The notes under the pieces were generated by a model, which saw only the letters and a program-made list of their open reading frames with translations, made no database searches and was not told the DNA's origin. Below, one piece after another: positions 41,548 through 49,149 of a DNA stretch of 64,000 nucleotides. Source of the stretch: a virus; the IMG/VR virus record IMGVR_UViG_3300047557_002951, positions 1-64,000 of that record. The stretch is one strand, 5' to 3'. The position numbers and the translations under genes were made by a program. Every line of letters starts with the position of its first letter. Position 1 is the first letter of the stretch.

Positions 41548-42732
41548 TTAGATTACTGGGTCAATGTAGGTGAGTGCTGCTGTATAAAAAGTTCTACCAC
41601 TTACTTGCTTCCAGTTGGTTCCACCAGCAAATGTAGTGACTGGAGTTGATACATTGGTTATTTGTGCATTTCCAAGTTGTCCATTATTATTACGACCCCA
41701 AGTCCATAAAGTTCCATTGGTCTTGATTGCAGATGTATGTTCACTTCCACTATTACTATTCACTTGTTTCCAATCGGTTCCTCCAGCAAATGTTGTAACT
41801 GGAGTGGATACATCAGTTGTTGATGCATTTCCAAGTCTTCCAAAATATCCATAACCCCAAGTCCATAGAGTTCCATCGGTTTTAATTGCTACTGTATGAC
41901 CATATCCACTATGCACCTGTTTCCAGTTCGTTCCGCCGGAAAAGGTGGTGATTGGAGTGGATATACTAAATGTTGTTACTACTGCATTTCCAATTCGTCC
42001 ATTAGCACTATTACCCCAAGTCCATAGAGTTCCATCAGTTTTGATTGCTGATGTATGTGAATTTTGAGAACTTACTTGTTTCCAGTTATTTCCTCCAGCA
42101 AATGTAGTAACTGGAGTAGATCTATTGTTTACTTGCGCGTTTCCAAGTTGTCCAAGATTCCCTCGACCCCAAGTCCATAGAGTTCCATCAGTTTTGATTG
42201 CTGATGTATAAGCATATCCACAACTTACTTGTTTCCAGTTGGTTCCTCCAGCAAATGTAGTGACCGGAGTTGATACATTGGTTATTGTTGCATTTCCAAG
42301 TTGTCCAAAATTCCCTCTACCCCAAGTCCATAGAGTTCCATCAGTTTTGATTGCTGATGTATATTGACCTCCACTACTCACTTGCTTCCAGTTGGTTCCT
42401 CCAGCAAATGTAGTGACCGGAGTGGATATACTACCTGTTGTTACTGCATTTCCAAGTCGTCCATAACCTCCATTACCCCAAATCCATAAGGTTCCATCAG
42501 TTTTGATTGCTGCTGTATGATTATCTCCACTACTCACTTGTTTCCAGTTGGTTCCTCCAGTAGAGGTAGTGACTGGAGTGGACCTATTGGTTGTTTGTGC
42601 GTTTCCAAGTCTTCCATAAGTTCCACCACCCCAAGTCCATAAGTTCCCATCACTGAACATATCAGCAGGTACAAAGATATCATCAAAACTATAATCAAGT
42701 CCGTTTTCTCTAAAGTTATAGAATGTAGGCAT
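41548..42732 (-). CDS. RCC1/BLIP-II beta-propeller protein, 7 repeats
   Basis: About 51-aa repeats [20 protein letters not shown]. Confidence 0.9.
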   Translation of the reverse strand: MPTFYNFRENGLDYSFDDIFVPADMFSDGNLWTWGGGTYGRLGNAQTTNRSTPVTTSTGGTNWKQVSSGDNHTAAIKTDGTLWIWGNGGYGRLGNAVTTGSISTPVTTFAGGTNWKQVSSGGQYTSAIKTDGTLWTWGRGNFGQLGNATITNVSTPVTTFAGGTNWKQVSCGYAYTSAIKTDGTLWTWGRGNLGQLGNAQVNNRSTPVTTFAGGNNWKQVSSQNSHTSAIKTDGTLWTWGNSANGRIGNAVVTTFSISTPITTFSGGTNWKQVHSGYGHTVAIKTDGTLWTWGYGYFGRLGNASTTDVSTPVTTFAGGTDWKQVNSNSGSEHTSAIKTNGTLWTWGRNNNGQLGNAQITNVSTPVTTFAGGTNWKQVSGRTFYTAALTYIDPVI

Positions 42733-42753
42733 TTGGAGTTCTTGGAAAAGACT

Positions 42754-43107
42754 TTATTCTACGAAAATCACAGGAGTGTTCATACTTTCACTCCACTTTT
42801 GAAGATATTGTTTAACTTCACTTTTTACTTCTTTATTATTTATTGCTAGTGCTTTTAGATATTGACCATTCTCATTAGTTTCCACAGAGACTAATACATT
42901 ACACTTATCAGGTCTCATTTCTTCTGGAAGTAAATGTTGAGACCAAGCACACTGATAATCTCTACAAACTTCTGGTCGTGCTTTATGAACTCCGCAACCA
43001 TTACACTCTAAAAACTTACAAGATTTTCCTGCTCCAAACTTCCATCCAAAAGCATCACCAATCAACCAAGAACAGCAAGCAGTGCATTCTCCACACTCAC
43101 GAAACAT
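42754..43107 (-). CDS. CxxCxxCC (YkgJ-like) cysteine-cluster protein
   Basis: CGECTACC..CKFL..CGVH..RPEVCRDYQC; start moved to MFRECG. Confidence 0.8.
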   Translation of the reverse strand: MFRECGECTACCSWLIGDAFGWKFGAGKSCKFLECNGCGVHKARPEVCRDYQCAWSQHLLPEEMRPDKCNVLVSVETNENGQYLKALAINNKEVKSEVKQYLQKWSESMNTPVIFVE

Positions 43108-43753
43108 AATCTTCCTCCCTATAATAATGGGTATAAGAATCAAAAATACCCGGTTGATGAATAGATTTTGGATTGGAGTTTGGATTACTTCCTATCCATA
43201 GTTCTCTATCTATACGATAATCACTATAAAGAAATTTATGGTCTAATGTTTGTATGTGTTTTGAAGTTGCCCACCAAAAGTTTCCAGTAAAATTATATGT
43301 ACCTTCTACTGGTTTTGTTGTTGTTCCGTCACTCCATAAAGTTTCTCCAACTGGATTTAAATTTGCACCAACACAATCATAATCATTCAAGTATTCTACA
43401 CACTCTTTCCACTTATCAATCACAAAGTGTTCCATCATTAATCTCCAAGCATTAGCAGTCAAAGTTCCTTTACTTGCTCCCTTCATATGAAAATATAAAA
43501 TCTTATAATCGGGATTTTCATATGCAAAATCTTTAAGAGCAATTAGAGTTTCTGTTTCTTCTTTCCAATTTTTATTGTATAAAACTTTTGCCTTTGACGG
43601 AACATAAAACATTTCTTCATTTCCATTTACACCAATATGAAAATGATTTACTTCATTTAAAAGACCCGATACAAATAATCTATTAATTTGTTGTTGGTAA
43701 ATGAAAGCAGAAATATTATTTTGAAATGTATGATAAAAGACTGCGATTTTCAT
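43097..43753 (-). CDS. hypothetical protein, possibly glycosyltransferase-like
   Basis: LYFHMKG, YDCVG, FTGNFWW, RIDRELWIG; lies within the GT cluster. Confidence 0.55.
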   Translation of the reverse strand: MKIAVFYHTFQNNISAFIYQQQINRLFVSGLLNEVNHFHIGVNGNEEMFYVPSKAKVLYNKNWKEETETLIALKDFAYENPDYKILYFHMKGASKGTLTANAWRLMMEHFVIDKWKECVEYLNDYDCVGANLNPVGETLWSDGTTTKPVEGTYNFTGNFWWATSKHIQTLDHKFLYSDYRIDRELWIGSNPNSNPKSIHQPGIFDSYTHYYREEDYVS

Positions 43754-44529
43754 ATATTATATTGGACTCCTTCCATTCCTTTAATTACATTCAACCCAAG
43801 ATTTGGAATGCTAATGATATTCTTTTTATTTAAGAAACGATAAAGAGAATGTTCGACATCAGTTCCAGCAGTAAATTGAATCATTTTTTCCATATAAACA
43901 AATGCTCTTTCAAGTGCTTCAACTGCTTCATTAAATAACATTCTATCAAAAGACCACAAACCAGTAATCATCATACCCTTTGCTCCATAAAGATAGGCAT
44001 AGACATTCTCAAGTTCCTTATCATTAAAGTTTTCTGCTTCTTGTGGAAGATACTCATAACTTTTAATCACATACTTGTTCTCAAGAAACTTACTTTGATA
44101 ATCTTGAATATTAAAATCGTCATTAAGTAAATATCTTCCAGTAAGTTTGAATACTCTTTGACTATCACTAAAAAGATTATGTTTTTTGATTACATAAAGA
44201 CTATTCAATAATCCTCTGGTTTCCAATAAGGATTTTCCATAAGTAATCAGTTCAGGTCTTTTTTCAAGATTTTCATAGATTTGCTGAAGAACTAGTTCAT
44301 TATAAAACTCCAAAAACAAATCTGCTTTTTCTTTGAATATCTCTTTTTGCTTTTCATCAATAGGTTTTGATGAGCACTCAAATAAAACTACATATGAGTC
44401 TGGAACTTTTTTACGAATACATTCAATTGTTTCTAAAGTCTGTTCAAATCTTTGTTGCTCATCATATGCACTAAACTTATCTTCTTGAAAGTGTTTGAGT
44501 GCTGAACCTACTAAAAATAAAAACTTCAT
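43750..44529 (-). CDS. hypothetical protein, possibly GT-A-like
   Basis: RFEQTLETI..IRKKVP..ECS, GKSLLE, FKLTGRY, DVEH. Confidence 0.55.
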   Translation of the reverse strand: MKFLFLVGSALKHFQEDKFSAYDEQQRFEQTLETIECIRKKVPDSYVVLFECSSKPIDEKQKEIFKEKADLFLEFYNELVLQQIYENLEKRPELITYGKSLLETRGLLNSLYVIKKHNLFSDSQRVFKLTGRYLLNDDFNIQDYQSKFLENKYVIKSYEYLPQEAENFNDKELENVYAYLYGAKGMMITGLWSFDRMLFNEAVEALERAFVYMEKMIQFTAGTDVEHSLYRFLNKKNIISIPNLGLNVIKGMEGVQYNI

Positions 44530-47581: not shown

Positions 47582-47582
47582 T

Positions 47583-48242
47583 TTATCCCTCTACTGGTTC
47601 TGGTTGTTCTTTAATCACAACAGCATAAACAGCATCAATTTCCACACAAGCATCAATTTCTTGAAGTTTTGCTAACTCCCAGTCAAATGCTGCCTGAACA
47701 ACGGCATCAATCTCACTTATAATCGTTTGAAGTTCTTCTGTAGTAATCTCCAACCAAGTATTCTGGAACTTAAAGTTATGAGGTCCTGGAGATGCTGCTA
47801 ACTTGCTTGCTAAAAGAAGTCTCTCTTCTCTTGAAGTTGATACTTCTACTTCCGTATTATTGACTATGAGAGTGATGATAGTATTTTCTTTTTCTCTTCT
47901 TGCTGGAGCAACCTCTTGCTTTCTAATATTTTTAACTTCTTCTAAGGTCTTATCTGTGATTGGATAAGTGAATACAACCTTTACTGGAACCTCATTTTCT
48001 TTTACAATTTCCCAAGTGAAGTTTCCAACATTATGATACTTTGGGTCGTGTTCTGGTATTACTCTTTCAGTTGGAACAAGATGAGTAAGACCATCACTAA
48101 AATGAATAGGAAGTGAAGAAAAACTTTGTGATGATATTCTTTCTTCTACTTCAAGTTCTTCTAACTCTTCATTGATATAACGAACATTCAATCCAAAAGG
48201 ACCAAGTTCTAATGAGTTATTATGAATAAGTGCGATTTCCAT
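47583..48242 (-). CDS. DUF4376-like tail-associated protein
   Basis: Start moved to MEIALIH after CATAAATA (48256-48263); V...R...E..NFKF..W..VQAAFDWE pattern. Confidence 0.65.
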   Translation of the reverse strand: MEIALIHNNSLELGPFGLNVRYINEELEELEVEERISSQSFSSLPIHFSDGLTHLVPTERVIPEHDPKYHNVGNFTWEIVKENEVPVKVVFTYPITDKTLEEVKNIRKQEVAPARREKENTIITLIVNNTEVEVSTSREERLLLASKLAASPGPHNFKFQNTWLEITTEELQTIISEIDAVVQAAFDWELAKLQEIDACVEIDAVYAVVIKEQPEPVEG

Positions 48243-48264
48243 TGGTCTTTTTAGGTATTTATGT

Positions 48265-49149
48265 TTATGAGAATGGGTATTCTGCTGAGATTCCTGCTTG
48301 GACTGCTGCTGTATGAGAAGATATACTAGCACTAACTTGTTTCCAGTTGGTTCCACCAGCAAATGTGGTGATTGGAGTGGATCTATTACCTACTATTACT
48401 GCATTTCCAAGTCTTCCATAAGACCCAAGACCCCAAGTCCATAAGGTTCCATCAGTTTTGATTGCTGCTGTATGAAAATATCCACTACTTACTTGTTTCC
48501 AGTTGGTTCCTCCAGCAAATGTAGTGACTGGAGTTGATACATTGGTTGTTACTGCGTTTCCAAGTTGTCCAGTATTTCCACGACCCCAAGTCCATAGAGT
48601 TCCATCGGTTTTAATTGCTACTGTATATTGGTATCCACTACTCACTTGTTTCCAGTTGGTTCCTCCAGCAAATGTGGTGACTGGAGTGGATCTACTGGTT
48701 ATTGCTGCATTTCCAAGTTGTCCATTAGTTCCACCACCCCAAGTCCATAAGGTTCCATCAGTCTTGATTGCTGCTGTATGATTACCTCCAACACTTACTT
48801 GTTTCCAGTTGTTCCCTCCAGCAAATGTGGTGACTGGAGTGGATATAGTACCTGTTGTTACTCCATTTCCAAGTTGTCCACTAGTTCCAATTCCCCAAGT
48901 CCATAAAGTTCCATCAGTTTTGATTGCTGCTGTGCAATTACTAGCACCACTAACTTGTTTCCAGTTGGTTCCTCCAGCAAATGTGGTGACTGGAGTGGAT
49001 ATATTGGTTATTGCTGCATTTCCAAGTTGTCCACTAGGTCCAGAACCCCAAGTCCATAAAGTATCTCCAACATATTGGTCAATCAACCAATAATCAGTTA
49101 CAAAATAGTTTTCTAAGTCACCTTCTGGCGAGAAAAACTGATTAGGCAT
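48265..49149 (-). CDS. RCC1/BLIP-II repeat protein, 5 repeats
   Basis: Same scaffold, five LWTWG units. Confidence 0.9.

Follow-up and report, generated by a model that had tools for sequence, protein, structure and literature searches.

What do three RCC1-like proteins do in the tail-fibre module of a phage, and how do their repeats come to combine a nearly invariant frame with loops that differ from one repeat to the next? The question is raised by the first 64 kb of the 159.6-kb IMG/VR virus record IMGVR_UViG_3300047557_002951, which is the stretch analysed here and is called the window; the record is ~75% complete. The virus is a freshwater T4-like cyanophage whose nearest named relative is S-SRM01. 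Within positions 41548-49149 of the window lie three open reading frames (ORFs) of the RCC1 family, A, B and C, all on the minus strand and carrying 7, 7 and 5 repeats, respectively. We favor, with moderate confidence, the reading that these are three paralogous RCC1-like propellers with a hypervariable face, which probably serve as exchangeable host-recognition modules of the tail-fibre module. Our confidence in the evolutionary description of the genes given below is high.

Nineteen repeats share one framework and vary in three patches

The three RCC1 genes are arranged in the window as follows.

41548..42732, minus strand: RCC1 gene A, 394 aa; leader of 30 aa, repeats A1-A7 (41554-42642), tail AALTYIDPVI.
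46337..47581, minus strand: RCC1 gene B, 414 aa; leader of 43 aa, repeats B1-B7 (46349-47452), tail KSVDFASF.
48265..49149, minus strand: RCC1 gene C, 294 aa; leader of 30 aa, repeats C1-C5 (48289-49059), slot-specific tail.

A, B and C each matched the Pfam family RCC1 (PF00415) with E values from 1e-45 to 8e-64 (212.5, 190.1 and 154.3 bits, with a cut-off of 21.7), and the three genes also matched the RCC1-like domain PF25390 with 260, 212 and 166 bits (cut-off 150). The whole 159.6-kb record holds exactly 19 RCC1 repeats, all of them over the cut-off and all inside A, B or C, and their nucleotide identity to one another is 68-90%. Repeats were cut at the LW.WG motif and then aligned. They are 51-57 residues long and follow the frame LW.WG..(4)G.LGN..(5-8)STP.TTFAGG.NWKQV..(5-13).AIKTDGT, which is interrupted by three hypervariable patches. 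Across 292 repeats from 16 genomes, these patches occupy hidden Markov model (HMM) positions 6-9 plus 11, 14-21 and 37-44; framework entropy is ~0, and the residues favored at variable positions are Ser, Asn, Thr, Gly and Ala. A preliminary description of this DNA had reported a near-identical scaffold over 19 repeats with three varying loops, and this is what the alignment and the Pfam matches show. The indels that it quoted are found in the alignment as well, AGPPPSIGGDF in B2 and NSNSGSEH in A6.

An AlphaFold2 (AF2) model of B built on a 28-row alignment had a mean predicted local distance difference test score (pLDDT) of 71, a predicted template modelling score (pTM) of 0.77, and 28 strands, which corresponds to seven blades of four strands each. 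Foldseek placed the model of B closest to HERC2 RLD2 (7q40), with template modelling (TM) scores of 0.80/0.89, followed by UVR8, RCC1 and RPGR, and matches of the model in BFVD include phage RCC1 proteins, among them GAP32 K4F6B8. No solved phage structure related by sequence was found; the solved relatives are eukaryotic, with a phmmer E value of 2e-46 to UVR8. The earlier count of three propellers is borne out by the model for B and would extend to A from its seven repeats, but it is uncertain for C, which has five repeats and a model of mean pLDDT 51.

In the model of B, each repeat runs through strand C (LWTWG), the C-D loop, strand D (STPVTT), the D-A loop (FAGGTN), strand A (WKQVS), the A-B loop, strand B (TAAIKT) and the B-C turn (DGT). 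Patches 1 and 2 make up the C-D loop around the fixed G.LGN, and patch 3 is the A-B loop (residues 101-114 and 134-142, respectively, in one example); FAGGTN (the D-A loop) and TDGT (the B-C turn) are conserved. A four-stranded blade of the up-and-down type carries its A-B and C-D loops on one face and its B-C and D-A connections on the opposite one. Because the patches occupy the C-D and A-B loops, all variable patches are predicted to lie on one propeller face. By the strand topology of the model the variable loops share one face, as had been expected from the first look at these genes.

Framework and loop positions differ in their rate of change

Proteins encoded in the flanks are 85-96% identical to those of the closest relatives, and the RCC1 proteins are 58-75% identical. 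The genes at 42754..46308, which are syntenic in relatives, were used as the calibration flank. Non-synonymous (dN) and synonymous (dS) divergence was calculated by the Nei-Gojobori method as averages over classes of sites, without site models, and recombination can inflate such estimates. The values were as follows.

Flanks: dS 0.51-0.69; dN 0.07-0.09.
Framework positions: dS 0.39-0.46; dN 0.02-0.05; dN/dS 0.05-0.10.
Variable positions: dS 0.37-0.55; dN 0.53-0.59; dN/dS 1.08-1.47.

For six pairs of near-identical genes, in which changes are unsaturated, the corresponding ratio of proportions (pN/pS) was 1.34 at variable positions (126.8 non-synonymous vs 29.2 synonymous) and 0.12 in the framework. 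On these class averages, loop positions are shown to change ~8 times faster than the flanking proteins with dN/dS of at least 1, and the framework is shown to be under strong purifying selection. Diversifying selection on the loops together with concerted evolution fits both the dN/dS values and the orthology data that follow.

Repeats have lost their positional orthology

Synonymous codon identity at framework positions is 0.745 among the repeats of the window, compared with 0.44 expected from the window's own codon usage. Many positions have a codon of their own, often a non-preferred one: N32 is encoded by AAC in 17 of 18 repeats, AAT being the preferred codon of the window, I46 by ATC in 15 of 17, and G5 by GGT in 18 of 19 but G13 by GGA in 19 of 19. 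A pairwise homoplasy index (PHI) test on the 19 repeats gave p 0.0005 at a window of 5. In a maximum likelihood (ML) tree of the same repeats, in which only two branches were well supported, there were 10 changes of gene label, with a mean of 9.3 after shuffling, so that the repeats do not cluster by gene, as the preliminary description had proposed.

The same loss of order is seen between genomes. When repeats were matched to those of relatives at variable positions, the best match was in the same gene slot and at the same repeat index in 15 of 285 cases, which is the chance level (1 in 21), and in the same slot in 88 of 285; grouping by position was thus absent here too. At synonymous framework sites, codon identity to one relative, L012, was 0.728 for repeats at the same position (n=423) and 0.720 for other pairs, and same-position identity was no better in seven other genomes, further values being 0.726 vs 0.738 and 0.760 vs 0.759. 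Codon identity to relatives at conserved residues of the flanks is 0.72-0.78, and from the value of 0.777 we estimate that repeats left in place and diverging like the flanks would show an identity of ~0.89. In some genomes the repeats are more alike internally than they are to those of any other genome (L032 0.87, L049 0.85, L034 0.80). The synonymous consensus of the framework is common to the clade, at 0.71-0.76 between close genomes and 0.62-0.65 between distant ones vs 0.75 within the window, and by our estimate it decays two to four times slower than synonymous sites of the flanks. This slow decay could come from selection on the DNA or from gene flow limited to the repeats.

The loss of orthology, the codon likeness and the internal homogeneity together point to concerted evolution by recombination among repeats, and from these sequence comparisons we conclude that this RCC1 family is genuinely shaped by recombination between repeats. 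Repeats recombine within a gene, among A, B and C, and probably also between co-infecting phages. Such exchange erases positional orthology and keeps position-specific codons alike, and it would shift the repeat number by whole repeats.

The two shared tracts first cited as a sign of recombination are present as quoted: 42573-42625 in A1 matches 47226-47279 in B2 over 53 nt with one mismatch (41 nt exact), and 41995-42020 in A5 is identical to 46784-46809 in B5 over 26 nt. As signs of recombination they do not stand, their length being within chance in a GENECONV-like run-length test (85 polymorphic sites, 3000 site permutations, 171 pairs), in which the best pairwise p values were 0.004 for A5/B5, 0.011 for B4/C4 and 0.017 for A1/B2. 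The likeness of the framework is far above chance; the two shared tracts are not.

Strain pairs differ by whole repeats and by loop substitutions

Neither IMG/VR nor JGI metagenome contigs contained a sequence with >74% identity to protein B, and microevolution was for this reason studied only in strain pairs of the relatives. Six separate assemblies of one relative (L011-L015 and L043) had 0 mismatches across 17.8-21.2 kb in which all three RCC1 genes lie, and other groups behaved likewise. Such identity argues against random misassembly and against programmed change at a high rate. Two pairs differ solely by a clean two-repeat indel in the B slot: L012 and L042 by 303 nt with a 114-nt identical stretch at both ends, and L069 and L122 by 312 nt with a 181-nt identical stretch. 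Whole-repeat indels of this kind match unequal homologous recombination, and assembler collapse of exact repeats could give the same result. An apparent high divergence of L012/L042, L069/L122 and L042/L044 was rejected, the mismatches being due to misregistered alignment over the clean two-repeat indel. L097/L098 were left out of the strain-pair counts, their repeat numbers being different.

Two collinear pairs allowed substitutions to be counted by class. L095/L102 had 0/4818 differences in the flank, 20/585 in the framework and 22/501 at variable positions, and for L039/L040 these counts were 3/2241, 2/837 and 19/708. Over the six near-identical pairs, 89 of 258 substitutions were templated, that is, found with at least 20 nt of context in another repeat of the partner locus, compared with 17 of 258 for random mutations.

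Logan contigs of the two best-matching runs are identical to the window in its unique parts and are broken inside all three RCC1 genes, and contigs from other phages pile onto the RCC1 repeats.

Most loop alleles are unique and no programmed mechanism was found

In a census of 1531 repeats from 196 distinct ORFs, we counted 1069 distinct alleles of loop 1 (788 of them singletons), 994 of loop 2 and 1158 of loop 3. The loop-1 and loop-3 alleles of the window were found elsewhere 0-3 times each. Recurrent canonical forms occur only in the semi-conserved loop 2, where NAQTTNRS was seen 8 times outside the window. The claim that loop alleles recur holds for loop 2 and fails for loops 1 and 3, whose alleles are nearly all unique. 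Since most alleles are unique, the loops do not represent a finite shuffled library. Of the combinatorial repertoire reshuffled by recombination that had been envisaged, the recombination between repeats stands and the recurring shuffled alleles do not.

We also considered a dedicated diversification machine acting on the loops, either a diversity-generating retroelement (DGR) or cassette copying like that of lamprey variable lymphocyte receptors (VLRs), to which the preliminary description had likened these genes. Variation confined to short patches in a constant frame does resemble DGR targets and VLRs. However, a reverse transcriptase match (PF00078) was absent from the ~75%-complete record, where template repeats were not specifically searched, and the record holds no silent donor cassettes, all 19 repeats being inside three intact ORFs. 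In addition, the 57 variable patches are spread over three genes, unlike a single C-terminal variable region, and the identity of the six assemblies described above is contrary to programmed change at a high rate. From the lack of a reverse transcriptase match in the ~75%-complete record and the placement of all repeats in intact ORFs we reject DGR-like and VLR-like programmed mechanisms, an origin that is barely credible for these loops. We conclude from the sequence record that diversification of the RCC1 genes is evolutionary rather than programmed.

The framework family appears confined to phages and occupies three slots

Related stretches were found 312 times in IMG/VR and 511 times in JGI metagenomes. 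A search of 185,579 bacterial and archaeal genomes, one per species, gave a single weak match, and the framework would on this basis be essentially confined to phages; the RCC1 framework family appears to be a phage family. In 15 related loci the RCC1 genes occupy the same three slots, which can be told apart by slot-specific leaders and C-terminal tails, with two loci showing two of the three slots in the stretch covered. The leader consensus is TNF.DS.G.DLG..L.TKDYL.SVYP for the B slot and MPTFYNF.ENG..YSFDD.FVPAD for the A slot, and the conserved tails include KSVDFASF.

Seven repeats are the rule, being present in 128 of 157 distinct complete RCC1 ORFs; the other 29 have 2-6, 9-14, 20, 21, 26, 27 or 41. 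C-slot orthologues mostly have seven repeats, with six in S-SRM01 and five in gene C of the window, and our confidence in five as the true repeat number of gene C is low.

Some RCC1 ORFs are giants. Two of them, of 1731 and 2294 aa, have 27 and 41 HMM repeats, and others have 20, 21 or 26 (L048:1009-6201 and 6971-13852; L097:793-5307; L034:13045-16509; L053:5777-9286). They resemble several propellers in a row and occupy slots that hold single propellers in the window phage.

The RCC1 genes lie in a tail-fibre module

From 30 to 64 kb of the window every gene is on the minus strand. The genes around and between the RCC1 genes are listed here.

49142..51655, minus strand: upstream fibre gene, 837 aa; collagen-like segments of Gly-X-Gln, and an intramolecular chaperone domain (Peptidase_S74) at the C terminus.
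47583..48242, minus strand: DUF4376 protein, ~219 aa from the ATG at 48242, between C and B; Pfam DUF4376 1.9e-5.
42754..46308, minus strand: five genes between B and A, encoding a TPR protein (446 aa), a 2-oxoglutarate-Fe(II) (2OG-Fe(II)) oxygenase, two hypothetical proteins and a Cys-rich protein of 118-129 aa.

The upstream fibre gene matched Pfam Collagen (1e-81) and Peptidase_S74 (4.5e-14) as well as tail-fibre families of PHROG, and the start of gene C overlaps its stop by 8 nt. This arrangement is widespread: of 21 distinct relatives, 20 have an S74-tailed fibre gene before the C slot, with an almost identical tail (49142-49400 in the window), and in 17 of the 21 the C-slot gene overlaps it by the same 8 nt. 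Further upstream of C, proteins of 1124, 852 and 1078 aa match tail-fibre and baseplate PHROGs. Genes A and B, unlike C, are not directly behind a distal fibre gene. The position of the DUF4376 protein is kept in relatives, where its identity is 45-86%, and its counterpart in S-SRM01 is gp336.

Among named phages, S-SRM01 alone, a freshwater Synechococcus phage of the Kyanoviridae, is related at the DNA level, where patches are 78% identical. It has the same gene order, and its RCC1 genes, with the products gp335, gp337 and gp344, carry 6 (C slot), 7 and 7 repeats. Its C slot is preceded by a fibre gene (gp334) with the annotation long tail fibre distal subunit. The available main text of the S-SRM01 paper makes no mention of the RCC1 genes (PMC8557907). 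A complex prediction of three copies of the mature fibre tip (residues 665-746) with protein C, run without controls, scored 0.01 and speaks neither for nor against binding.

Several other features of this region were recorded. The shaft of the fibre gene upstream of the C slot is swapped among relatives: 11 have a collagen-like shaft and the rest a non-collagen one. The structural region includes a further collagen-like fibre gene, a 2785-aa ORF with a high-GC repetitive body at 21836-30193. Directly downstream of A, at 36429-41524, the structural region encodes a series of modification enzymes, namely a sulfotransferase, glycosyltransferases of family 2, a methyltransferase of the FkbM type and a fusion of glycosyltransferase and methyltransferase, and S-SRM01 has the same series. 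The T4-type late promoter TATAAATA matched 7 times in the window vs 4.9 expected, which is not significant, and none of the matches is directly upstream of an RCC1 gene. On the minus strand, TATAAATA motifs are found at 51643-51650, at the start of the collagen-fibre ORF, and at 56321-56328, just upstream of the 1124-aa fibre-like gene.

Weighing the possible roles of the propellers

In the reading that we favor, the variable face would be the binding surface for a changing partner. The propellers would most likely act as adhesin modules that are docked on virion fibres by their conserved leaders, and gene C would fill the role that gp38 has behind gene 37 in T2-type phages. An adhesin role, for which the preliminary description had proposed the tips of the upstream collagen fibre, is plausible from the gene order and the translational coupling of C to the fibre gene, and our confidence in it is about even.

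Several results weigh against this reading and against the recombination that accompanies it. A, B and C are putative virion proteins and putative binders, and the placement of the loops on one face comes from the strand topology of a model with a mean pLDDT of 71. The model of gene C is too poor to tell whether five repeats make a closed ring. All relatives except S-SRM01 are metagenome assemblies, in which an assembler could lose repeats where identical stretches of 114-181 nt recur, and five-repeat forms, including gene C, are possibly artefacts. No repeat pair was globally significant in the run-length test (global p of at least 0.32), and the PHI test lost significance once its window was widened, with p 0.06 at 10 and 0.27 at 15. 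In three other near-identical strain pairs it is the flank that differs: L048/L050 have 0/12075 differences in RCC1 vs 185/5948 in the flank, L135/L136 have 0 vs 8/6640, and L082/L083 have 0 vs 11/4614. Templated substitutions with 20 nt of context, finally, did not tell conversion from mutation towards paralogue states under a stricter null in which states were drawn from paralogous columns (79.2 +/- 6.5 vs 89 observed). A marginal excess was left for longer tracts alone, with 54 vs 42.5 at 30 nt or more and 27 vs 15.8 at 40 nt or more, and 2 of 40 simulations were as high; these counts suggest multi-site gene conversion between repeats, which is not proven.

A separate observation concerns L048/L050, which are 98.6% identical. 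All 185 differences lie outside their two giant RCC1 genes, which points to another local hot spot in that lineage.

How else could these genes be understood? We suggest as a tentative possibility that the framework DNA is itself the working part, providing exact homology for one recombining pool that is shared across co-infecting phages and rebuilds the faces of fibre-tip adhesins. Exact homology between repeats reaches 48 nt in the window and 114-181 nt in relatives. With its 19 repeats in this phage and as many as 41 in a single gene elsewhere, the pool would serve lake cyanophage populations as a combinatorial engine of host range. The slower synonymous divergence of the framework, by two to four times compared with the flanks, is in line with this idea. 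It is unlikely, in our judgment, that the propellers are instead non-virion proteins that act inside the cell as binders or decoys of host defence or regulatory proteins, with the variability reflecting an intracellular arms race. The solved RCC1-like relatives that were found (UVR8, HERC2, RPGR and RCC1) are all platforms for protein-protein interaction, the RCC1 genes are interleaved with non-structural enzymes (2OG oxygenase, sulfotransferase, glycosyl- and methyltransferases), and the virion location of their products is putative. Such an intracellular role is, however, at odds with the coupling of gene C to the fibre gene in 17 of 21 relatives and with neighboring genes that match tail-fibre and baseplate families. 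Homologues of the same PHROG have also been found in purified W70 virions (PMC11370258).

The remaining alternatives concern how the pattern arose. That the loops were diversified in place by point mutation and selection, with the likeness of framework DNA reflecting purifying selection on codons, is quite improbable: positional orthologues are no more alike than other repeats at synonymous framework sites whereas the flanks keep 0.72-0.78 by descent, indels of whole repeats fall at long stretches of identity, some genomes are more homogeneous internally, and the PHI test is significant at short range. This explanation does draw on the uniqueness of most loop alleles, on the run-length test of the window, and on the paralogue-state null, which accounts for most of the templated substitutions; selection on codons could also produce the clade-wide codon consensus. 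It is very improbable that faulty assembly of a repetitive metagenome region produced the mosaic and the unusual repeat numbers, even though the Logan contigs break inside all three RCC1 genes, both clean differences in repeat number fall at exact 114- and 181-nt repeats that short-read assemblers can collapse, and the five-repeat gene C models poorly. The six assemblies agree at every base, the layout of three genes recurs in the cultured isolate S-SRM01, and the hypervariable-loop pattern extends over the whole census of repeats with exactly seven repeats in most ORFs, which is unlike an artefact.

Comparison with known systems

Among known systems, the HNWD (het-d/het-e/het-r) genes of Podospora anserina, which encode NOD-like receptors (NLRs) with WD40 repeats, evolve in the manner closest to that seen here (PMC1805685, PMC2873952). 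HNWD and the RCC1 genes of the window have in common highly conserved propeller repeats, concerted evolution with exchange within and between paralogues, and positive diversifying selection on a few surface positions per repeat. Repeat number is variable in HNWD and may be so in the RCC1 genes. The repeats themselves differ, being WD40 with four variable residues in HNWD and RCC1 of ~51 aa with three variable loops in the window. The HNWD genes are fungal, include a NACHT/STAND domain, are exposed to mutagenesis by repeat-induced point mutation (RIP) and serve non-self recognition, whereas the window genes are from a phage, have none of these and are likely to serve host recognition. Experiments have demonstrated repeat instability in the fungal genes alone.

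The gp38 adhesins of T2/T6-type phages are encoded behind the distal tail-fibre gene and have hypervariable segments between conserved motifs, a design proposed to ease the exchange of specificity determinants (PMC3157838). Gene C resembles gp38 in lying directly behind the distal fibre gene and in having a conserved N-terminal part and a hypervariable part that in gp38 sets specificity. No gp38 family was among the Pfam and PHROG matches of the RCC1 proteins; only RCC1 families were matched. The fold of gp38 is a polyglycine sandwich, and there is one gp38 gene per phage; the window has three RCC1 paralogues with a propeller fold and putative attachment at the fibre tip.

The RCC1 proteins of the window match phrog_4219 with E values from 1e-33 to 1e-44. 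Members of this PHROG, W70_237-239, were detected by mass spectrometry in purified virions of E. coli phage W70, whose authors left the role of the RCC1 proteins open and mentioned a suspected role in DNA packaging (PMC11370258). Cronobacter phage GAP32 has an RCC1-like virion protein, GAP_001, whose homologues are present in several copies in 121Q and PBEC04 (PMC5259590). Like the window proteins, the W70 and GAP32 proteins belong to phrog_4219, have the same fold and occur as several tandem paralogues per genome. They differ in being distant in sequence, in being termed chromosome or DNA condensation proteins and in having no fibre-gene neighbor reported in the available text of these papers, which also does not describe hypervariable loops or concerted evolution (PMC11370258, PMC5259590). 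The available text of a paper on diversifying conflict systems treats neither RCC1 nor repeat conversion (PMC7159879), and a literature search on RCC1 in cyanophages, tail fibres or receptor-binding proteins, with most subscription journals outside its reach, found no account of this hypervariability.

Eukaryotic RCC1 (1a12), UVR8 (4dnw), HERC2 RLD2 (7q40) and RPGR (4jhn) share with the window proteins the seven-bladed propeller and the repeat signature (TM 0.75-0.89). Eukaryotic RCC1-like domains bind their partners by one face and are without near-identical repeats or hypervariable loops. Their roles as guanine nucleotide exchange factor (GEF) for Ran, in UV-B sensing and in ubiquitin ligases have no counterpart in the phage. 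The window genes would thus represent an RCC1-based phage version of a module that combines a constant frame, a hypervariable face and concerted evolution, probably for host recognition.

How freshwater and marine cyanomyoviruses recognize their hosts has been mapped poorly, and the usual annotation of RCC1-like proteins in phages is "chromosome condensation". The genes described here belong to a large phage-restricted family with the layout of a recognition module, whose three slots are conserved in the compared loci and in S-SRM01. Should they prove to be adhesins, the host range of cyanophages could be predicted and engineered through them. They would also provide a natural seven-bladed binder scaffold with 21 variable loops, and a viral example of the repeat-shuffling route to diversity that is known from fungal NLRs.

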